A DNA stretch of 64,000 nt from Agathobacter sp. (lineage in GTDB: Bacteria > Bacillota_I > Bacilli_A > RF39 > UBA660). A program made the position numbers and the translations under genes. The notes under the pieces are model-generated. The model had not been told where the DNA came from. It searched no databases and was given only the letters and a program-made list of their open reading frames with translations. Location of the stretch: contig CAVGEW010000040.1 of assembly GCA_963628465.1 (NCBI GenBank), positions 4,539-68,538 on the forward strand, given 5' to 3'. Of this stretch, positions 6,922 through 58,036 are shown piece by piece (positions within the stretch are counted from its first letter, which is position 1; each line of letters starts with the position of its first letter).

Positions 6922-9006
6922 TTAAGAATTATGTACTTTCTTAGACTTAATATATTTATCAAGACCTCTAAAGCCATTTGATTGATAATCAAATTCTTTT
7001 ATAATAGAATAATCTTTTATATTATGTTTATCTAAATACCTTTTCATAGAATCTTCAGTTATAGTATTAAAACTTATTTTATCATGAATTCGACCTAATA
7101 ATTCTTTACTAAAAGTATTTTCATAGGTACTTTTACCTGGCATAAAACCTATTTTATAACTAGCTAAAGCATTACTAGTCGCAAATATATAAGTATTCTT
7201 AAAGTCTATTTTATCCCCCTTAGAATTAGTTACATAGCCTTCATCTAGGATTTGTAAAAATAAATTAATAACACTAGGATGAGCTTTTTCTAATTCATCA
7301 AGTAAGATGATAGAACAAGGATTCATTCTAACCTTATCAAAGATATTTTCATCATCATACCCTATGTATCCTGCACTTGAACCTATAAGTCTTGATATAG
7401 ATATACTTTCATTATATTCACTTAAATCAAGTCTAATTAGAGGAATAGATAAAAACGTAGCAATATCTTTAACTGTTTTAGTTTTACCAACTCCAGTTGG
7501 TCCTGATAAAAGAATTGATACTGGAGATAGTTCATCTTTTCTTTTTAAAGCATCTATTATACTAGTAATAGCGTCTTCTTGAGAAATTATATTATCTAGG
7601 AGATATTCTTTTAAACTGTCAAAATCAAAATTTAAAAGAGGTATATTATTCTTTCTTAAAAGGACTTCTTTTATATCAGAATCTAATAATTTGTTAGGCG
7701 TATTTTTTTTCTTATTTATTTTTTCCCTAAGTTTTATTTCCATACTTCGGTATTTTAAAGCTTCTTCAAAGTTATTATTTTTGACCATATTTTCTTTAGT
7801 CTTTATAATATTATTTAGTTTATCCTTTAACTTAGATATATCTTTTTCTCTAGGACACTTTACTTCCTTCATAGCACATACACTATCAAGTAAATCAATT
7901 GATTTATCTGGATTAAATCTATTTAAGATATATCTATCGGTAAGATTTACTATGCTTTTAATATTATTATCTGTTATTTTTATATTATAGTGTTTTTCAA
8001 AGGAAGGTTTTATTCTCGAAAGAATATATTCTGTTTCTTCCTTAGACGGTTCATTTATTTTAATTATTTCAAATCTTCTTGCTAAAGCTCTATCTTTAGC
8101 TATATATTTATTATATTCATTCGTAGTTGTTGCCCCGATTATTTTTACTTTGCCCCGAGCAAGGTATGGTTTTAAAATATCACTTGCATTAATAGCACCT
8201 TCAGCTCCGCCTGCACTGGCCATAGTATGGATTTCATCAATAAAAAGGATTATCTCAGGATTGTTTTCTATTTCTTTGATTACTTTGTTTAATTTTTCTT
8301 CAAACTCTCCGCGATACTTAGTACCTGCGATAAGTGCCGACATTTCTAAAGACACTATTTTTTTATCCTTTAGCTTACTTGGGACATTACCATTTTTGAT
8401 TCTTCGAGCTAATTCTTCGACAATAGCACTCTTACCCACTCCTGCAGGACCTATAAGCAAAGGATTATTCTTATTTTTGCGAAGTAATGTTTCTATAACA
8501 AGATTTAATTCTGCGTCTCTACCTACTAACAAATCATCACTATCTAATAAAGACATATCTTTGCCTATATTATATAATTCTAACTTCTTATTACTTTTTT
8601 TATAGCTTTTTCTTATATCATCATATAATTTATCTATGTCTATATCCATACTTAGAAGAATTCTGATAGCTATACCTTCCCCTTCATCAAGAATAGCAAT
8701 TAATAAATCCATAGGTTCTAAAGTCATATTCCTAGTTATTTCACTAGCTTCTTTAATAACTCTTTTAAGTAAAGGAGTATATATACCGCAGTAAACATCA
8801 TTATTAGAAACCACTGAAAGAAGTTCATCTAAAAAATTATCATAAGAAAGACCATATTCTAATAAAATATTTCTAATTTTATCATTATTTTGTATTAAAC
8901 TAAGAAATAAATGTTCTGTTCCTACATAAGGATGATTTAACTCCATAGCTATTTTCTCAGCCTTTTTAAATACCTTCTTAACTTCTAAACTATAATTATT
9001 ATTCAT
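6922..9006 (-). CDS. clpC: Clp-type double-AAA+ ATPase (ClpC-like, short form)
   Basis: Clp_N-like N-terminus. AAA1 'LIGPAGVGKSAIVEELARRI', UVR-like coiled coil, AAA2 'LLSGPTGVGKTKTVKDIA'. Confidence 0.75.
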   Translation of the reverse strand: MNNNYSLEVKKVFKKAEKIAMELNHPYVGTEHLFLSLIQNNDKIRNILLEYGLSYDNFLDELLSVVSNNDVYCGIYTPLLKRVIKEASEITRNMTLEPMDLLIAILDEGEGIAIRILLSMDIDIDKLYDDIRKSYKKSNKKLELYNIGKDMSLLDSDDLLVGRDAELNLVIETLLRKNKNNPLLIGPAGVGKSAIVEELARRIKNGNVPSKLKDKKIVSLEMSALIAGTKYRGEFEEKLNKVIKEIENNPEIILFIDEIHTMASAGGAEGAINASDILKPYLARGKVKIIGATTTNEYNKYIAKDRALARRFEIIKINEPSKEETEYILSRIKPSFEKHYNIKITDNNIKSIVNLTDRYILNRFNPDKSIDLLDSVCAMKEVKCPREKDISKLKDKLNNIIKTKENMVKNNNFEEALKYRSMEIKLREKINKKKNTPNKLLDSDIKEVLLRKNNIPLLNFDFDSLKEYLLDNIISQEDAITSIIDALKRKDELSPVSILLSGPTGVGKTKTVKDIATFLSIPLIRLDLSEYNESISISRLIGSSAGYIGYDDENIFDKVRMNPCSIILLDELEKAHPSVINLFLQILDEGYVTNSKGDKIDFKNTYIFATSNALASYKIGFMPGKSTYENTFSKELLGRIHDKISFNTITEDSMKRYLDKHNIKDYSIIKEFDYQSNGFRGLDKYIKSKKVHNS

Positions 9007-9051
9007 AGAATCCTCCTTATTAATTCTATGTAAGTTATGGAAAATATTTAA

Positions 9052-9651
9052 TTATTTTATACAATTAAAAGGACATTTACTACATAATGGATTCTTAGCT
9101 TTACAAGTATATCTACCTAAAAGTACTAATTGATTATGAACCCTATTCCAAGTATCCTTAGGAAAAAACTTCATTAAATCTTGTTCTATTTCCAAGACTT
9201 CACTACTTTTAGATAGACCTATTCTATTTGCAACTCTTGCTACATGGGTATCTACGGCAATTGCTGGCACATTAAAAATATTAGATAAAACTACATTACA
9301 TGTCTTTCTACCTACGCCAGGTAAACTTTCTAGATATTCTCTATTACAGGGAACTACTCCGTTATAATCTTCAACTAATCTATTAGCTACTTCTTTTATA
9401 TATATAGCTTTTCTTTTGTAGGTACCTACTGGATATATAATACTTTCAATAGTGTTTAAATCAGCTTTAGCTAAAGAAAATATATCATATTTAGAAAATA
9501 AAACTTTAGTTACTTCATTTACTCTTTTATCCGTGGTTTGAGCAGATAAAACCGTAGCTATTAAAAGTTCATAGTCTTTATTAAAGGTAAGTTCACAAAC
9601 AGGATTTGGTACAATAATATCTAATTTTTTTAATACAGCATTACTTTTCAT
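9052..9651 (-). CDS. nth: Endonuclease III (DNA glycosylase/AP lyase)
   Basis: HhH-GPD 'LPGVGRKTCNVVL' and C-terminal 4Fe-4S Cys cluster 'CKAKNPLCSKCPFNC'. Confidence 0.9.
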   Translation of the reverse strand: MKSNAVLKKLDIIVPNPVCELTFNKDYELLIATVLSAQTTDKRVNEVTKVLFSKYDIFSLAKADLNTIESIIYPVGTYKRKAIYIKEVANRLVEDYNGVVPCNREYLESLPGVGRKTCNVVLSNIFNVPAIAVDTHVARVANRIGLSKSSEVLEIEQDLMKFFPKDTWNRVHNQLVLLGRYTCKAKNPLCSKCPFNCIK

Positions 9652-51470: not shown

Positions 51471-52115
51471 TTATCTACTATACATGTAATTTTTCATTTT
51501 AGTTAAACTTCTTTTTTCATATCTCGACACCATTACTTGGGTTATACCTAGCTTTCTAGCCGTTTCACTTTGAGTTAAATCTTCATAATATCGACTTTTA
51601 ATAATATCTTTTTCCAAAGTATCTAAAGAATCTATACTATTTTTAAGTTCTAATTTATCATCTAAAGAAATAGCCTCTTCTTCCCTAAGTACTTCATGCA
51701 AACTTCTTTCATCACTTTTAACTTCATCTATAGATACAAAACTATTTGCAAAAGATAAAACTTGTTCTAACTTTTCTTCTTCCATCTCAAGGTAAGCCGC
51801 AAGCTCTTTATTTGATGGTTCACGCATTATTTCTTGGGCAAGTCTTACCCTACCTACATCTATCATTTTAAGAAGTTTATTAATGTCTTTATTTAGTTTA
51901 ATTTCCTTATTATTTGCTAATAAATACATTTCCCCAAAGATATAATTATAAGCATAAGTACTAAATTTAGTTGTACCATCATCATGAAAATTTTGATAAG
52001 CTTTAATAATACCAAGTACCCCAGCTTGATATAAATCATTTTTATCAACACCATAAAACTTCTTAGCAATAGTCCATATTAATCCTGCACTTGATTTAAT
52101 CAATTCCTCTAGCAT
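51471..52115 (-). CDS. Sporulation-type sigma factor (SigF/SigG-like, 214 aa)
   Basis: Sigma-70 region 2 'GLIWTIAKKF..YQAGVLGIIKA..F.TYA' and region 4 HTH 'LTQSETARKLGITQVMVSRYEKRSL'. Confidence 0.75.
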   Translation of the reverse strand: MLEELIKSSAGLIWTIAKKFYGVDKNDLYQAGVLGIIKAYQNFHDDGTTKFSTYAYNYIFGEMYLLANNKEIKLNKDINKLLKMIDVGRVRLAQEIMREPSNKELAAYLEMEEEKLEQVLSFANSFVSIDEVKSDERSLHEVLREEEAISLDDKLELKNSIDSLDTLEKDIIKSRYYEDLTQSETARKLGITQVMVSRYEKRSLTKMKNYMYSR

Positions 52116-52450
52116 TATAATGCCTCCATTTCTTTATAAGCTTCTACCTCTGTTTTAACAATTGGTAATTTCAAATATTTACATAAATAGACATTTGCAT
52201 TATTAACACCACACACCCTTATAGTCCCTTTATTACACTTAATATAGTATTTACTATTTAATAAAGAATCTATACCAGCATTATCTACCATTTCTAACTT
52301 CTCAAAATTATACACAAGATTCTTAATATCATGTTTCTTTATAACAGTATTTAGATAATTATTTATTTTAAAACTTGCTTTTCTATCTAAGATACCTTTA
52401 AGTCTCGCAAATAAAACTTCATTTTTATACTCTAACTCTAGTTTAAACAT
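52115..52450 (-). CDS. STAS-domain anti-sigma-factor antagonist (SpoIIAA-like)
   Basis: 111-aa STAS fold. The phosphoacceptor block reads 'MVDNAGIDSL' (Asn where Ser is expected). Confidence 0.6.
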   Translation of the reverse strand: MFKLELEYKNEVLFARLKGILDRKASFKINNYLNTVIKKHDIKNLVYNFEKLEMVDNAGIDSLLNSKYYIKCNKGTIRVCGVNNANVYLCKYLKLPIVKTEVEAYKEMEAL

Positions 52451-52598: not shown

Positions 52599-52685
52599 GC
52601 CTGTATGGCGGAATCGGTAGACGCGATAGACTCAAAATCTATTTTCAGTGATGGAGTTCCAGTTCAAGTCTGGATACAGGCACCA
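52599..52685 (+). tRNA. tRNA-Leu (anticodon CAA), long variable arm
   Basis: Acceptor 'gcctgta'/'tacaggc', anticodon stem-loop 'ataga-ctCAAaa-tctat', T loop 'ttcaagt', CCA encoded. 87 nt. Confidence 0.9.
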
Positions 52686-52723: not shown

Positions 52724-54091
52724 CTATGTTTCCACAATAGTATTCTTTTCTAATTTTTCATTCTTTATTTCTTTTGGTTTATCATTTACAAGATTCTTTC
52801 TTTTATCTTTTTTCTTACCCTTTTTCTTAGTTAAAATAATAATTATAATTATCATTAAAACAAGCACTCCACTAAAACCAAAAATAATATAAGTATAAAG
52901 GTCTACTTTTTTATTTAAATCTAATACATATTCATCATTATAATTAATAAGTGATTGCATCTTTTTATCATACATGTAAAAACCTTTATCACCAGTTTCA
53001 ACGTTAACACCATATATAATCACGTAGTTAGAATCTTTTTTATAGTAATATCCCTTTACTAAGATGCCATTTATTTCTATTTCGCCTTTGGTATATCCTT
53101 TAATTTCTTCACTAGATTCAAGTGGATATATTGTTATTTTATTAACACCTATTTCATAATAAGGTGTATATTTACTAGATTCTTCATCATATATAAATAG
53201 ACTAATACTTCCTTCTTCATCTTTTAGACCTACAAGAACTAAGTTAGTATATTCATTTTTATATGCTGGTATATCAAAATCATTTATTTTGACTATATAT
53301 TCTGCATAAAGACTTATCTCAGGTAAGTTTTCTTTTAACTTAACCACTGTGTAATTTTTACCATCAACTTCCACATTTATAGGGTTTTCGTCTTTTACTT
53401 CCACATTAACTACATATGTTTTTTCAGCTCCACTTTGGGCTCTTACCACTATTTCAAATTTATTTGTGCCAGGTACAACAGTTTTTGTTCCATCGCCTGT
53501 TACAGATGCTGTTTTATCTTGAAGTGAAGCAATAATATTTACTTCTTTAGTTCCTTCAGGAACAACTAGGTTATATTCCAAAGTATCGGCATTAAATTCA
53601 GGCGTTAAAGTAAAACCTTCGACTTCTAGAGTTTTTAAGCTGTTATTTTTTGAATAACTTGCTTCAAGTTCGGCTTGAGTTATGATATTAATAGTTTTGC
53701 TACTACTAGTAAGAGTTATTTGACTTAAATCATCAAACGCATAAGCTAGATAACTATCAACAACAACTTTAGTACTTCCTTTTTTCAGTGTTTTAAACGT
53801 AAATGTATATGACTTACTTTTGATGCCCGTCGAGCTTGATGCAGCCATTCGGTTTCCATTACTTTCTGCATTAGTACTTTTAAGTTGTAAATAATTTTTA
53901 TCATAATTAAGAGACATTTCCCAACTACCTATCGAAGTTGCACTTGAAATAGTTACTGTTACAACTACATTATTGCCTACGACAACCGTAGATGAACTAG
54001 CAACCGTTATTTTTCCACTTGCAGCACTCGCCACACTAGGGAAAGCTATTAAACAAAATAAACTAATAAATAATATTTTTATTTTTTTCAT
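52724..54091 (-). CDS. Cohesin-domain + cadherin-like beta-sandwich surface protein, C-terminal TM anchor
   Basis: Signal peptide. Cohesin-like 'VVVTVTISSATSIGSWEMSLNYDKNYLQL'. Cadherin-like 'LKTLEVEGFTLTPEFNADTLEYNLVV'. TM plus KKKGKKKDKRK. Confidence 0.55.
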   Translation of the reverse strand: MKKIKILFISLFCLIAFPSVASAASGKITVASSSTVVVGNNVVVTVTISSATSIGSWEMSLNYDKNYLQLKSTNAESNGNRMAASSSTGIKSKSYTFTFKTLKKGSTKVVVDSYLAYAFDDLSQITLTSSSKTINIITQAELEASYSKNNSLKTLEVEGFTLTPEFNADTLEYNLVVPEGTKEVNIIASLQDKTASVTGDGTKTVVPGTNKFEIVVRAQSGAEKTYVVNVEVKDENPINVEVDGKNYTVVKLKENLPEISLYAEYIVKINDFDIPAYKNEYTNLVLVGLKDEEGSISLFIYDEESSKYTPYYEIGVNKITIYPLESSEEIKGYTKGEIEINGILVKGYYYKKDSNYVIIYGVNVETGDKGFYMYDKKMQSLINYNDEYVLDLNKKVDLYTYIIFGFSGVLVLMIIIIIILTKKKGKKKDKRKNLVNDKPKEIKNEKLEKNTIVET

Positions 54092-54104
54092 TTTCCACTC
54101 CTTC

Positions 54105-55859
54105 TTACTGCTCTATTTCATAAGTACCTAAAATTCTTTTTTGTACTTGCAACAAATCTAAAGCATTAACTTGCCCATCTTTTGAGGTGTCCGCAGCCTC
54201 AAGATAAGCTCCAGTTAAAGTATATGTACCCAAGATATTTTTTTGAACTTGCAATAAATCTAAGGCATTTATAATGCCATCACCAGATGTATCTCCCTTT
54301 ATAACAACTTCTAAAATTTCTGTGCTATTTTGATTGTTTATAGTTATTTTATCACCAGTTGCAATCACGCCACTAGTTTTACTATTGTTATTTGCATCCA
54401 TAATGCTTACAGTTGCATTCCCACCAACAGCTTGCAAAGCGCCTTTCACAGAAGCAACATCACTGCCTAAGGCAATACCTGAAATATATTTTGATGTATA
54501 TTTATAACCGCTTGATGTTACAATTGTTGAAATAGGAATGCTAGTAGGATTTGGAGTATCATTTTTATCATCATCGACTGCCCCATTGCTACTATTATTA
54601 ATTGTAGAATTCATATTATTATAAACAGGAATCTTAAATGTTAATTCAAGACCAAGTAAGTTATTTTTTTCATAAGCATTATATGAGGTACTTGCCTCAC
54701 TCATTGCGCCCGCTAAATTAGTCATATATTGATGAGTAAATAGTTTACCTTCGCTGCTTGTTGCCACATTAAACTTTTGTAAATAACCAGTATATTGGTC
54801 TTTTAAAATATAACCACCAGCGAACTGGTCTATTCCTCCGTTTATTGCTGCTACGACACCATTCCAACCAGATTTAACTGCATAAGTAAGACCACAATAA
54901 GTTGTGCCATAATTTGCAACACAAGTATCAGTAACGCCAAAATTAAAGAAATTATAGTAATCTAAATAATCAGCCGTAGTTCCTTTATAAAGATTTTCAA
55001 GGCTAGTTCCTGTGCCAAGTTCTACTCTCATCTTAGATGCTATTGCTATCGGACTCGCTTTATCTACACTACCAGCAATAATTATATCTTTTAAATCTAG
55101 TTTGTTCTTCGCTACATTTAAATGATAATTATAAAAATCAGCCCCCGTTAAAATAGTTGAAACAGCACTTGGATAACTATTAACCAAGAGATTATCATAA
55201 GATTGGTCAAGGAATTGAAATATATACTTTTCTGTAAAAGAGTTTCGAGGGTCCATATAATAAGCTACTCCTGTTTGTGAAGGTGCAACATAACCACCGG
55301 GTGACGTTGCTGTACATGTTTCATCAAAGAATGTTTTATCATAAGTACCCTTATAAATATAGTTTCGACCACATTCACTTTCTCTATTTACAACATAAGA
55401 CCAGTCCATATTAATATTTATAGCTTTGAAAGACCAAGTGGGATGATTTTCTTTTAAATCACAAAGACCTCCCCAATAACTTGAAGGAATCCCTGCCTGA
55501 CTTAATGTTTTCTCACATTCAGTTGAGGGAGGAACATCATCACTAGTATAAGATTTAATTAATAAAACATCATCACTACATACATATCCATCAACATCTG
55601 TATAATAACTCATATGATACCAACCGCCATTACATCTTAAATGATTGTTAACATCATCATACAATTTATCATCTTTGAGTAAATAATAATCATTTTTATA
55701 AAGAAGACCTACTCTTTTTCCATTAGTTCCTCCTGGGTCATACCTTAAATTAGTTTGATTATATAATATTTTAACTCTATATGTATAAGAAGCAGCTTTA
55801 ACATTTAAAACCCACGCAAAGGACAAAACAATAGTAATAATAAATATAATTTTTTTCAT
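54105..55859 (-). CDS. Secreted SH3b + putative N-acetylglucosaminidase-like peptidoglycan hydrolase with C-terminal type-I dockerin
   Basis: Start moved to the internal Met 'MKKIIF..' with an AGGAGG RBS. 'YYMDPRNSFTEKYIFQFLD' resembles glucosaminidase family blocks. Tandem dockerin repeats 'GDTSGDGIINALDLLQVQKNILG'/'KDGQVNALDLLQVQKRILG'. Confidence 0.55.
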   Translation of the reverse strand: MKKIIFIITIVLSFAWVLNVKAASYTYRVKILYNQTNLRYDPGGTNGKRVGLLYKNDYYLLKDDKLYDDVNNHLRCNGGWYHMSYYTDVDGYVCSDDVLLIKSYTSDDVPPSTECEKTLSQAGIPSSYWGGLCDLKENHPTWSFKAININMDWSYVVNRESECGRNYIYKGTYDKTFFDETCTATSPGGYVAPSQTGVAYYMDPRNSFTEKYIFQFLDQSYDNLLVNSYPSAVSTILTGADFYNYHLNVAKNKLDLKDIIIAGSVDKASPIAIASKMRVELGTGTSLENLYKGTTADYLDYYNFFNFGVTDTCVANYGTTYCGLTYAVKSGWNGVVAAINGGIDQFAGGYILKDQYTGYLQKFNVATSSEGKLFTHQYMTNLAGAMSEASTSYNAYEKNNLLGLELTFKIPVYNNMNSTINNSSNGAVDDDKNDTPNPTSIPISTIVTSSGYKYTSKYISGIALGSDVASVKGALQAVGGNATVSIMDANNNSKTSGVIATGDKITINNQNSTEILEVVIKGDTSGDGIINALDLLQVQKNILGTYTLTGAYLEAADTSKDGQVNALDLLQVQKRILGTYEIEQ

Positions 55860-55957
55860 GTCAAATCCTCCTTGTATCATAATAATTATACCAAAGTACA
55901 AGCAAACTTACAATTTATTTACACTTTAAAAAGTAAATAAATGTAAAAGAAAAAAAG

Positions 55958-56425
55958 CTACTTAAAATATATGCGAGCTTTAGATAAATTTTTAAGCCTA
56001 TTTATTTTAATATAGCTTTGAGTTGATGAAAAGATTAAACTGTAAAGAGAACCGCAAATAGATACCCAACCTGACATTAAAATTATATCTCTTAAAATAC
56101 TAGCAAATCCAGTGTAATAAAGAATAATTAAAGCAATACCTATTACTAAAAGAATCGCTTTTCTATCTTGTTCTTTTTCATAAGCATACAACATATCTTT
56201 AACCATAATACCATAATTTTTTCTTATAATATCTATCATATTTTGTTTCTCTTCATCATTTATTTTAACTTTACTATCAATATTTATAATTATTTTATCT
56301 TTATGACTTCCTTCAAGACTTTCTTTATATATATAGTTACTTAAATTTTCATTTATTTTATGATTATTAAACTTATTATAGAAATCACTTTTTTTATTTA
56401 GATTAACTAGTATCTTCGTTGTCAT
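55958..56425 (-). CDS. Hypothetical 2-TM membrane protein
   Basis: 155 aa with C-terminal hydrophobic helices. Immediately upstream (in operon order) of the dockerin hydrolase. Confidence 0.4.
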   Translation of the reverse strand: MTTKILVNLNKKSDFYNKFNNHKINENLSNYIYKESLEGSHKDKIIINIDSKVKINDEEKQNMIDIIRKNYGIMVKDMLYAYEKEQDRKAILLVIGIALIILYYTGFASILRDIILMSGWVSICGSLYSLIFSSTQSYIKINRLKNLSKARIYFK

Positions 56426-56428
56426 TTA

Positions 56429-57649
56429 TTACCTCTTTTCATCTACATAACGAATATTTATATCAACATCACCGCTTATGCCATCTACCCTACCATTACT
56501 ACACATTTGCCAAAAATCATAATCACCAGTATAGTTTGTATTTTTAGTATAATGAGCTAACCATACAGGATAACCTGTAGAAAGCCAAATATTTTCTAAA
56601 TATGTTTTACTACTATAAAGCATTGCCTCATACCCAGCTTCTTTTATAGTATCCATAAAACCTTTAGCAATGTTTGTAAGTCCAAAGAAACTAACATCAA
56701 ACTGATTAAAACTACTCCAATTTTCCCAGTCAAAAGCAATTGGTAAATCAACTTTATAATCTTTGATTTGCTCAACTATCCATTTCGCATCACTTACCGC
56801 TCTATCATAGGTACTTGCATAAGAATAAAAATAGATGCCTACGGGAATTCCTACTGCATTGGCATTTTCTATATTTTGTACAAATTTACTATCCACAAAA
56901 TTATCCCCATTAATGCCAGTTGATGAACCTACTCTTATAATGATAAATTCAACACCCGCAGCCTTTAACTTACTAAAATCAATATTCCCTTGCCACTTAG
57001 ATACATCAATACCTATCTGTGTTTCACTAGTTTTATAATCGCTTTTTACATCATTAAACAAAGTCGTTGTCTTACTAGAGGTAGAACTACTTGTATTCTT
57101 AGCTTTATTAACATTTAAAGAAAATTCTTTTTCAGTTTTATTACCACTTGAATCTTCTGCTTTAAATACAAGTTTATAAGATCCTACTTCATTTAAGTCA
57201 TATTCACCCTCAATTAAACAAGAAGGCTTACTATCGTAGTTATCCCCACACATTATTTTATCAAGTAAATTATCTTCACTACCTACGTTTACATTATAGC
57301 TTTTGCCAAGCCAAATAATCGGTGCCTCATTATCCACCACATTTATTTCATAACTATATTTAATCTTTATTCCATCGTCATTTATATATTCAAACACAAT
57401 ATCTTTTTTACCTAATTTTTCAGTATCAATTACATAATCATCTATTATTTTTCCATTGATACTTTCTATAAAAGAAGATACTTTATAAGTATCAGCAAAT
57501 TCTGCATTAAGTTCATCTACCAAAGTTATTTCTACTTTCGCAGTTTTAACTCTAATATATTTATATAAAAAATATCCCCCTATAGTAAGAATTACTACAG
57601 CAAACAAGATGCAAACTATTATTACTACTTTCTTTTTGTTCATAAGCAC
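56429..57649 (-). CDS. Membrane-anchored GH25 muramidase (lysozyme) with Ig-like domain
   Basis: 'GIDVSKWQGNIDFSKLKAAGVEFIIIRVGSS' GH25 N-terminal catalytic block, 'DWENW' region, N-terminal TM. Confidence 0.75.
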   Translation of the reverse strand: MLMNKKKVVIIVCILFAVVILTIGGYFLYKYIRVKTAKVEITLVDELNAEFADTYKVSSFIESINGKIIDDYVIDTEKLGKKDIVFEYINDDGIKIKYSYEINVVDNEAPIIWLGKSYNVNVGSEDNLLDKIMCGDNYDSKPSCLIEGEYDLNEVGSYKLVFKAEDSSGNKTEKEFSLNVNKAKNTSSSTSSKTTTLFNDVKSDYKTSETQIGIDVSKWQGNIDFSKLKAAGVEFIIIRVGSSTGINGDNFVDSKFVQNIENANAVGIPVGIYFYSYASTYDRAVSDAKWIVEQIKDYKVDLPIAFDWENWSSFNQFDVSFFGLTNIAKGFMDTIKEAGYEAMLYSSKTYLENIWLSTGYPVWLAHYTKNTNYTGDYDFWQMCSNGRVDGISGDVDINIRYVDEKR

Positions 57650-57652
57650 CTA

Positions 57653-58036
57653 TTAAATCCATTTAGAAATATATATAACTCTTGTAGTATATTCTTCATA
57701 ATTATCAAATATTTGTAGTATAGAACGTATAATTTCTTTTAAAATATCTTTAGCATCTTTTCTAATTCTAATTTGCATTATTTGTTTTTGCATTTCTTTT
57801 CTAAATAAATAATCATCTATATACTTATTTACTACTTTATCTAAATTAATAACACTTTCAACATCTTCAGGATTATTTACATCAATTCTAAAGATATATT
57901 CTTGATAAAGTTTAATTAATTTCTTAGATACAATATCTTCTTCATAAGGACTAAATTCTATTATTTTATAAAAGTTTGGACATAACCCAATTATTTGTTT
58001 ATTTGTTTGCATAACATCACCATCTATCTTTACCAT
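57653..58036 (-). CDS. Hypothetical cytoplasmic protein
   Basis: 127-aa ORF with no recognisable motif. Confidence 0.35.
   Translation of the reverse strand: MVKIDGDVMQTNKQIIGLCPNFYKIIEFSPYEEDIVSKKLIKLYQEYIFRIDVNNPEDVESVINLDKVVNKYIDDYLFRKEMQKQIMQIRIRKDAKDILKEIIRSILQIFDNYEEYTTRVIYISKWI

Follow-up and report, generated by a model that had tools for sequence, protein, structure and literature searches.

A two-gene cohesin–dockerin cassette of uncultured gut Bacilli that appears to tether a cell-wall hydrolase to the surface of its own cell

Overview

A stretch of 64,000 nucleotides (nt) from an Agathobacter sp. assembly (GCA_963628465.1, contig CAVGEW010000040.1, positions 4,539 to 68,538 of the forward strand), here called the window, carries two adjacent genes whose products appear to reuse the connector of cellulosomes to hold a cell-wall hydrolase on the surface of the producing cell. 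The first gene encodes a predicted peptidoglycan hydrolase of 584 amino acids (aa) that ends in a dockerin (the enzyme), and the second a membrane protein of 455 aa that carries a single cohesin (the partner). The pair is read as a two-gene operon for a dedicated, self-contained, calcium-dependent 1:1 cohesin–dockerin tether that would keep an autolysin on the cell's own wall; the probability of this reading is put at roughly 65%.

How Gram-positive bacteria place their wall-cutting enzymes without lysing themselves or losing the enzyme is partly understood. The routes known for their own wall hydrolases include wall-binding repeats, a membrane helix on the enzyme, and partner proteins such as SpdC or FtsEX. 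If the reading is true, a cohesin–dockerin plug would be a new anchoring principle, and the cellulosome connector would turn out to be a coupler of general use outside the cell, with a housekeeping task perhaps older or wider than its part in fibre degradation. With one cohesin and one dockerin in one well-conserved operon, the system would also be easy to study experimentally and could serve in protein display as a compact orthogonal pair, and the cassette marks a large set of uncultured gut Bacilli. The general idea is already known, and the arrangement has been glimpsed once before. What appears to be undescribed is the dedicated two-gene cassette, the membrane-stalk partner, the breadth in uncultured gut Bacilli, the co-variation of cohesin and dockerin, and the link to wall biogenesis.

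An obligate gene pair

Enzyme and partner form an obligate, conserved two-gene cassette. Family profiles and alignments were built from 51 enzyme relatives and 51 partners, and a scan of species-representative genomes returned at least 595 related stretches, the best 79 loci of which were studied. These loci come from metagenome-assembled genomes (MAGs) of uncultured gut Bacilli, some of them deposited as 'Tenericutes', CAG:460 or Candidatus Onthocola, and from one Eubacteriales genome; in gut metagenomes, the enzyme and the partner each have thousands of relatives. A partner homolog lies directly after the enzyme gene at a spacing of −16 to +20 nt in every locus with enough downstream DNA (77/77). 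The pairing holds down to an enzyme identity of about 33% and into the Eubacteriales genome, and the genes that flank the pair differ between loci.

In the window, the two genes lie in tandem on the minus strand with the enzyme gene upstream, separated by 13 nt and each with its own ribosome-binding site (RBS, Table 1); the initial annotation of this DNA had called them divergent, which has to be corrected. The enzyme starts at the ATG at 55859 and not at the TTG at 55901 that would give the maximal open reading frame (ORF) of 598 aa, because a GGAGGA sequence precedes the ATG. The TTG falls within a promoter-like site, which is itself weak evidence, as such sites are no more common in the region than in shuffled sequence (38 found versus 40 expected). 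A terminator scan found no terminator after the partner gene.

At one locus (L011, Firmicutes bacterium CAG:460, positions 7752–9181), the partner gene seems to be split, with two matches and an 802-nt gap after the enzyme gene, which could reflect a frameshift, a pseudogene or an assembly error. In the Eubacteriales MAG (L083, 7516–8910), an SH3–GH73–dockerin gene is followed by a cohesin membrane protein that is barely recognizable by its full-length sequence and still matches the Pfam Cohesin family. In this partner, the cohesin, the beta domains next to the membrane and the membrane helix are retained, a long Pro/Glu-rich linker stands where the cadherin-like domain would be, and the dockerin of the neighbouring enzyme has different recognition residues.

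Enzyme homologs also occur in two faecal virome records labelled 'UNVERIFIED: Bacteriophage sp.' (L084, MT836697.1, and L085, MT836742.1), which bear the enzyme–partner pair as well; in L084, a cadherin-like domain stands ahead of the dockerin. An origin as a phage or prophage lysin was rejected because the ORFs on the L084 scaffold, the one searched with Pfam, are plainly those of a bacterial chromosome (LtaS, YfhO, GT2, ClpC and RadA-like). PHROGs gave no match for the partner and only a weak tail-hydrolase match for the enzyme.

Co-variation of cohesin and dockerin

The two modules expected to bind one another co-vary more closely than any other domains of the two proteins. In a mirror-tree analysis of 51 pairs, based on matrices of pairwise distances in eight domains, cohesin and dockerin distances correlated at r = 0.90, and every other domain pair reached 0.80 or less. 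Comparisons within the same polypeptide were lower, at 0.70 for dockerin and X module and 0.62 for cohesin and cadherin-like domain. The association persisted in a partial Mantel test that controlled for the GH73 domain and the C-terminal domains of the partner (r = 0.82, p = 0.0005). In the divergent lineages, the GH73 distance saturates at about 0.63, dockerin and cohesin distances keep rising together, and dockerin positions 10–11 switch from Ala-Leu to other residues.

Neither a second cohesin nor a second dockerin was found in the 64-kb window. Co-variation, strict pairing and a single copy of each module in the window are together good indirect evidence that cohesin and dockerin are cognate, from which we infer that the two bind each other physically.

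The dockerin of the enzyme

By sequence and by model, the enzyme ends in an intact dockerin of type I in which neither calcium loop is broken, and the duplicated module named in the initial annotation is thereby borne out. Dockerin_1 (PF00404) matches residues 521–577 over its complete length (model positions 1–57 of 57) with 52.8 bits against a cutoff of 22.9, and is found in all 51 enzyme relatives. The two segments, DTSGDGIINALDLLQVQKNILG and DTSKDGQVNALDLLQVQKRILG, are identical in 18 of 22 residues. Positions 1/3/5/9/12 of the calcium loop read D/S/D/N/D in both (D523/S525/D527/N531/D534 and D557/S559/D561/N565/D568), and these ligand positions are kept across the 51 family members, with Ser at position 3, or Asn or Asp in a few relatives. 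A Ser at this position is allowed in EF-hand loops.

Both segments have Ala-Leu at positions 10–11 (A532/L533 and A566/L567) and Gln-Lys at positions 17–18; Ala-Leu at positions 10–11 is also a trait of C. cellulolyticum dockerins. With Foldseek, the model of the module superimposes on Clostridium thermocellum dockerins at 36–39% identity (1ohz_B, template modelling (TM) score 0.93, 0.8 Å; 2ccl_B, TM score 0.90, 0.9 Å). The near identity of the two halves suggests a dockerin with two alternative binding orientations. Dockerins need calcium to fold, and docking to the cohesin would be expected to share this dependence.

In one relative (L064, 4577–6295), the first segment is intact and the second is degenerate (GSMDSNSTNVTALNLL), with its calcium ligands lost, which would leave one binding orientation only.

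The cohesin and its membrane-anchored stalk

The partner begins with a compact module of about 115 residues, shorter than classical cohesins, that matches Cohesin (PF00963) with 28.2 bits against a cutoff of 24.1 (residues 27–116, model positions 2–95 of 139). The best Foldseek matches of its fold are Clostridium perfringens cohesins (2w1n, E = 1.9e-8; 2jh2, TM score 0.70 normalized to the target, 3.5 Å over about 130 columns), with which it shares about 20% identity, and these are followed by many type II cellulosomal cohesins. When the module alone (117 residues) was searched against 1.84 billion representative proteins, 274 clusters were retrieved, almost all of them proteins of 430–600 aa with the module at residues ~24–140, so that this cohesin subtype is found almost only singly, at the N-terminus and in this architecture. 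The few long matches are true scaffoldins with 4–7 strong Pfam cohesin repeats. Because the module by itself retrieves such Pfam-verified multi-cohesin scaffoldins, the cohesin call stands, for a short and divergent version of the domain. The initial annotation had named two findings that would speak against it, a missing cohesin match and a dockerin with a broken calcium pattern; PF00963 passes its cutoff, and the pattern is whole in both dockerin segments.

Weak Inhibitor_I42 matches in 20 partners lie below the cutoff and overlap the cohesin region; they were judged to be cross-matches between beta-sandwiches and were set aside.

Behind the cohesin follows a cadherin-like domain (PF12733, 34.5 bits, residues 162–231), which likewise exceeds its curated Pfam cutoff and is found in 50 of the 51 partner relatives. 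The AlphaFold model of the partner has a mean predicted local distance difference test (pLDDT) score of 81.5, and about 90 over residues 30–230. In order, it shows a signal-peptide helix, a beta-sandwich at 25–137, the cadherin-like domain at 152–233, beta domains at 239–383, a helix at 386–423 and a disordered Lys-rich tail. The membrane-proximal beta domains match no Pfam family even at E = 10 and are conserved in the family, including the version from Clostridia (L083). Signal peptide, C-terminal helix and positively charged tail point to a membrane protein of type I topology, in which the cohesin is the part most distant from the membrane. The cadherin-like domain, the membrane helix with its Lys-rich tail and the role as a membrane-anchored partner had all been proposed earlier; the model agrees with each and would place the cohesin at the far, outward-facing end of a single-pass protein.

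The catalytic domain of the enzyme

The central domain of the enzyme is placed with the N-acetylglucosaminidase autolysins by its family profile and its predicted fold, as the initial annotation had suggested. Compared with solved structures, the profile of the 51 enzyme relatives matches SagB (6u0o, E = 1.4e-21), Acp (5wqw, 1.8e-20), AtlE (4pi7, 4.8e-20) and Atl (6fxo, 2.1e-18), as well as 6fxp. With the single sequence, the matches are to type I dockerins, joined by weak ones to SagB, AtlE, Acp and Atl. Foldseek aligns the AlphaFold model (pLDDT 88) to SagB, Atl, Acp and AtlE at TM scores of 0.63–0.72, normalized to the target, with E-values down to 6.6e-10, and NCBIfam gives a weak, partial SagB match (38 bits against a cutoff of 425).

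The putative catalytic residues agree with this assignment. E280, whose codon lies at 55020–55022, is invariant in the 51 members and aligns to the catalytic E155 in the LETG motif of SagB. Y378 is present in 50 of 51 members and is part of an HQYMTN motif (residues 376–381) that aligns to HQYATD and contains the conserved Tyr of the YATD-type motif. On the strength of family and fold, the enzyme would cut the glycan strands of peptidoglycan.

The enzyme has a signal peptide of the cleavable type and no anchor helix. The N-terminal domain is likely a cell-wall binding module of the SH3b type. SH3_3 matched 41 of the 51 family members, and no match to it was found in the window enzyme itself at E ≤ 0.1 in Pfam; Foldseek matches the domain to 2kt8 and 2krs, and the family profile to 2krs and 2kq8. 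A disordered linker (residues 426–435, pLDDT <50) lies between the GH73 and the dockerin regions. It is followed by an alpha/beta module, here termed X, that sits directly before the dockerin and matches no Pfam family even at E = 10.

Table 1. Features of the enzyme and partner genes (window positions; domain assignments are predictions on the basis given)
Feature	Position	Strand	Basis or content
Enzyme gene	54105..55859	-	584 aa: signal peptide, SH3b, GH73-type glucosaminidase, X module, type I dockerin
Sec signal peptide, enzyme residues 1–22, MKKIIFIITIVLSFAWVLNVKA	55794..55859	-	Read from sequence; model helix 2–15; probable cleavage after VKA
SH3b-type domain, enzyme residues 25–105	55545..55787	-	SH3_3 in relatives, Foldseek, family profile
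GH73-type endo-beta-N-acetylglucosaminidase domain, enzyme residues 110–420	54600..55532	-	Family profile and Foldseek
Alpha/beta X module, enzyme residues 440–518	54306..54542	-	pLDDT 82–93; conserved motif TIVTSSGY
Type I dockerin, enzyme residues 519–584	54108..54305	-	Two near-identical segments of calcium loop and helix
Partner gene	52724..54091	-	455 aa: signal peptide, cohesin, cadherin-like domain, two beta domains, membrane helix, Lys-rich tail
Sec signal peptide, partner residues 1–23, ending ...PSVASA	54023..54091	-	Read from sequence; model helix 2–16; probable cleavage site
Compact cohesin module, partner residues 24–140, furthest from membrane	53672..54022	-	PF00963, Foldseek, module search, co-variation
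Cadherin-like beta-sandwich (stalk), partner residues 148–234	53390..53650	-	PF12733; pLDDT about 90
Two beta-rich domains without family, partner residues 236–385, membrane-proximal	52937..53386	-	Model pLDDT 73–86, all-beta
Single transmembrane helix, partner residues about 396–420, hydrophobic YIIFGFSGVLVLMIIIIIILT	52832..52906	-	Sequence; within model helix 386–423
Lys-rich disordered tail, partner residues 421–455, probably cytoplasmic	52727..52831	-	Sequence; pLDDT <50; side by positive-inside rule
Promoter-like TTGTAA-17 nt-TATAAT (with TG), upstream of enzyme gene	55885..55913	-	Consensus scan and direct reading
RBS GGAGGA, 6 nt before ATG at 55859	55866..55871	-	Direct reading
RBS GGAG of partner gene, within the 13-nt gap	54098..54101	-	Direct reading

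Proposed mechanism

In the proposed mechanism, the enzyme would be exported via Sec and use its N-terminal SH3b domain for wall binding, its GH73-type endo-beta-N-acetylglucosaminidase domain to cut peptidoglycan glycan strands, and its C-terminal X–dockerin for attachment. The partner would likewise be exported and then retained in the membrane by its C-terminal helix, with the Lys-rich tail in the cytoplasm, projecting a stalk of three or four beta-sandwich domains with the single cohesin at the tip. Outside the cell, the calcium-loaded dockerin would plug into the cohesin. The tip of the membrane-rooted stalk, within the wall or at it, would then carry the hydrolase by a non-covalent link, and the enzyme would not be lost to the gut lumen. 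Such a tether may restrict where the hydrolase cuts during wall growth, turnover or cell separation, a physiological role that we infer from the architecture and the gene neighbours in relatives.

A more specific version is put forward tentatively and is more probably wrong than right. Here, as a means of autolysin control, the calcium-dependent plug would fix the GH73 enzyme at a set height above the membrane, with the rigid stalk serving as a 'molecular ruler', so that one defined layer of the wall is cut in step with LCP and LtaS. The cassette would then be a modular, non-homologous counterpart of SagB–SpdC that has gone unrecognized and is widespread in uncultured gut Bacilli and some Clostridia.

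Genomic neighbourhood

Neighbours were counted by clustering the flanking ORFs of the 79 loci. A LytR-CpsA-Psr (LCP) ligase is found most often (47/79 loci), followed by a small polytopic membrane protein encoded divergently upstream (40), an LtaS-type sulfatase (28), a GT4 protein (TagO/MraY-like, 15), a P-type cation ATPase (12–13) and UppP/BacA (10). The envelope-biogenesis genes among these favour a role on the cell's own wall over an attack on other bacteria. None of the recurrent neighbour families is present in the 64-kb window.

In roughly half of the loci, the gene for the small polytopic protein (about 140 aa and without a family, for example L010, 4873–5301, minus strand) precedes the enzyme gene at a median distance of 145 nt, and its product may be a third component in those lineages. 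The P-type cation ATPase, which has N- and C-terminal domains typical of calcium pumps, is encoded just downstream of the pair (L001, 11292–13910; L002, 12923–15553; L044, 9314–11944; and about 10 loci besides). Its position is suggestive because the dockerin needs calcium.

In the window, a tRNA-Leu(CAA) gene (52599–52685, plus strand) lies 38 nt past the partner stop codon in convergent orientation and separates the pair from a spoIIAA–sigF unit (51471–52450, minus strand). This unit consists of a SpoIIAA-like gene of the STAS type (111 aa) and, directly adjoining it, a short sigma-F-like gene (214 aa). No gene for a SpoIIAB-type anti-sigma kinase lies between the two, the usual order being spoIIAA–spoIIAB–sigF, and spoVAC, spoVAD and spoVAE come after the sigF-like gene. 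Upstream of the pair (55958–58036, minus strand), three tightly packed genes encode a 127-aa protein, a 406-aa GH25 muramidase and a 155-aa membrane protein. The muramidase has an N-terminal membrane helix and an Ig-like domain, and its GH25 domain strongly matches phage endolysin families. All three genes accompany the pair in this species only, and a larger conserved operon that would include the muramidase and the 155-aa protein was for this reason considered and rejected.

Weighing of the evidence

Several observations count against a tethered autolysin. Pfam Glucosaminidase (PF01832), the search that had been proposed at the outset as a check, matches neither the window enzyme (E ≤ 0.1) nor any of the 51 relatives (E ≤ 0.01). 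Because PF01832 fails to recognize it, the catalytic domain is assigned to a divergent branch of GH73; the miss is not taken as a refutation, as family profile and predicted fold agree in placing the domain there. The cohesin match is partial and barely above the Pfam cutoff, and PF00963 reaches E ≤ 0.01 in just 26 of the 51 partners. When the eight most divergent lineages are removed, the correlation between cohesin and dockerin falls to r = 0.54 in the main clade, where the two are still the top partner for each other. The neighbours in this very genome, moreover, are a GH25 muramidase upstream and spoIIAA–sigF–spoVA genes downstream instead of envelope-biogenesis genes. On balance, the interpretation as a non-cellulosomal tether is supported: all of its elements that can be tested computationally held, with binding and activity being predicted from sequence and models.

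Among the rival explanations, the one in which the complex serves as a weapon and displays the hydrolase to lyse neighbouring bacteria (a 'lyticome', after PMC6403190) is unlikely. It takes support from dockerin-bearing lysozymes and D-Ala-D-Ala carboxypeptidases in rumen metagenomes, which have been interpreted in this way (PMC6487960), and from the membrane-anchored GH25 muramidase 0.5 kb upstream in this genome. The anchor of the partner, however, is a membrane helix beneath the producer's own wall and not an SLH- or sortase-linked one, the system is 1:1 and not a multi-enzyme scaffold, the recurrent neighbours belong to wall biogenesis (LCP, LtaS, GT4 and UppP), and no immunity-type gene is conserved with the pair. 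Rather improbable is a partner that acts mainly as a regulator, whose docking keeps the hydrolase inactive or sequestered until a calcium change or a wall signal releases or activates it. Nothing shows a contact between the partner and the catalytic domain, the disordered linker sets the dockerin apart from GH73, and the Inhibitor_I42 matches are weak, below the cutoff and over the cohesin region. The calcium-dependent folding of dockerins and the P-type cation ATPase gene directly after the pair in 12–13 loci would suit such a switch. So would the control of many autolysins by membrane partners, for example of SagB, which is scaffolded by SpdC (bioRxiv 10.1101/2020.05.21.109470).

It is very improbable that cohesin and dockerin bind other things, such as modules of other species or a wall polymer, and that the gene pairing reflects another shared role. 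In its favour, sequence by itself does not reveal which dockerin a cohesin binds, the cohesin here is compact, divergent and barely passes Pfam, and some microbes that have scaffoldins only have been suggested to scavenge dockerin proteins of foreign origin (PMC11557425). What argues for mutual binding is the co-variation at r = 0.90, which is specific to these two modules, along with the strict pairing in 77/77 loci, the one copy of each module in the window and the extracytoplasmic position of both. Hardly any weight is given to a sporulation-specific function, for instance in engulfment, cortex remodelling or mother-cell lysis, which was considered on account of the position of the pair about 270–320 nt upstream of spoIIAA–sigF (then spoVAC/D/E) on the same strand in this genome and its four closest relatives. 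This adjacency occurs in 5 of 83 loci (including L004, which is the same sequence) and is lost beyond the closest relatives, while the pair persists in all; even here, the convergent tRNA-Leu gene separates the pair from the spoIIAA–sigF unit, and vegetative envelope genes are the neighbours elsewhere. A conserved operon link between the pair and spoIIA was accordingly rejected beyond the closest relatives. The tether for the cell's own autolysin stays the preferred reading.

Comparison with known systems

The dockerin of the enzyme is a canonical type I module like those of cellulosomes and amylosomes (C. thermocellum Xyn10B–CipA 1ohz/2ccl, C. cellulolyticum 2vn5 and R. bromii), and its strong internal symmetry is typical of dual-binding dockerins. 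In contrast to cellulosomes, neither a multi-cohesin scaffoldin nor a carbohydrate-binding module nor polysaccharide-degrading enzymes were found in the window, the anchor is a transmembrane helix instead of an SLH or sortase anchor, and one operon encodes a 1:1 pair. The system also differs from a cellulosome in that the partner has only one cohesin, the 64-kb window only one dockerin protein, and the cargo is a predicted peptidoglycan hydrolase. Cohesin–dockerin systems outside cellulosomes include the R. bromii amylosome (PMC4611034), and single-cohesin proteins with C-terminal membrane helices have been seen in genome surveys (PMC11557425).

Peptidoglycan hydrolases that bear a dockerin are shared with the lyticome, as dockerin-tagged lysozymes and cell-wall hydrolases occur in R. 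champanellensis and in rumen cellulosomes and have been read as weapons (PMC6403190, PMC6487960). The enzymes in question ride on large plant-fibre cellulosomes and have been proposed to attack competitors, whereas the present cassette has a dedicated membrane partner and, in relatives, wall-biogenesis neighbours.

The arrangement closest to the cassette is found in Ruminococcus bicirculans, for which Ze et al. 2015 (PMC4611034), citing Wegmann et al. 2014, mention a lone cohesin and a dockerin 'associated with a GH73 enzyme'. Like the gut Bacilli described here, R. bicirculans would combine one cohesin and one dockerin tied to a GH73 enzyme, in its case in a non-cellulolytic gut Firmicute. 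Its genes are probably the same cassette by analogy with the Eubacteriales locus L083. The mention in PMC4611034 is one sentence, which gives neither architecture, partner topology, distribution, co-variation nor function; beyond this sentence, no other mention of the arrangement was found in the literature. The initial annotation termed the tethering of an autolysin in this way unusual, a word that has to be tempered, given how common the cassette is among uncultured gut Bacilli and that the R. bicirculans case has been noted in passing.

The closest structural matches of the partner cohesin come from C. perfringens, and with them the cassette shares the use of cohesin and dockerin beyond plant fibre, on secreted glycoside hydrolases. 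In the non-cellulosomal complexes of C. perfringens (GH84-family toxin complexes), the modules join secreted host-glycan enzymes to one another. Here, in contrast, one of the two modules appears from its sequence to sit on a membrane anchor, and the enzyme would be aimed at peptidoglycan.

The SagB–SpdC complex of Staphylococcus aureus follows the same logic, in that a GH73 glucosaminidase is held at the membrane by a partner protein, and among solved structures SagB is the nearest to the catalytic domain (profile E = 1.4e-21; Foldseek TM score 0.64–0.72). SagB itself possesses a membrane helix at its N-terminus. The active site of SagB is oriented by SpdC, a CAAX-protease-like protein with eight helices (bioRxiv 10.1101/2020.05.21.109470). 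The partner described here is a single-pass beta-sandwich stalk without a CAAX-protease domain and is unrelated to SpdC, so that only the catalytic domains of the two systems are related. In place of a polytopic scaffold, the cassette would hold its enzyme through a modular cohesin–dockerin plug at the tip of a long single-pass stalk.

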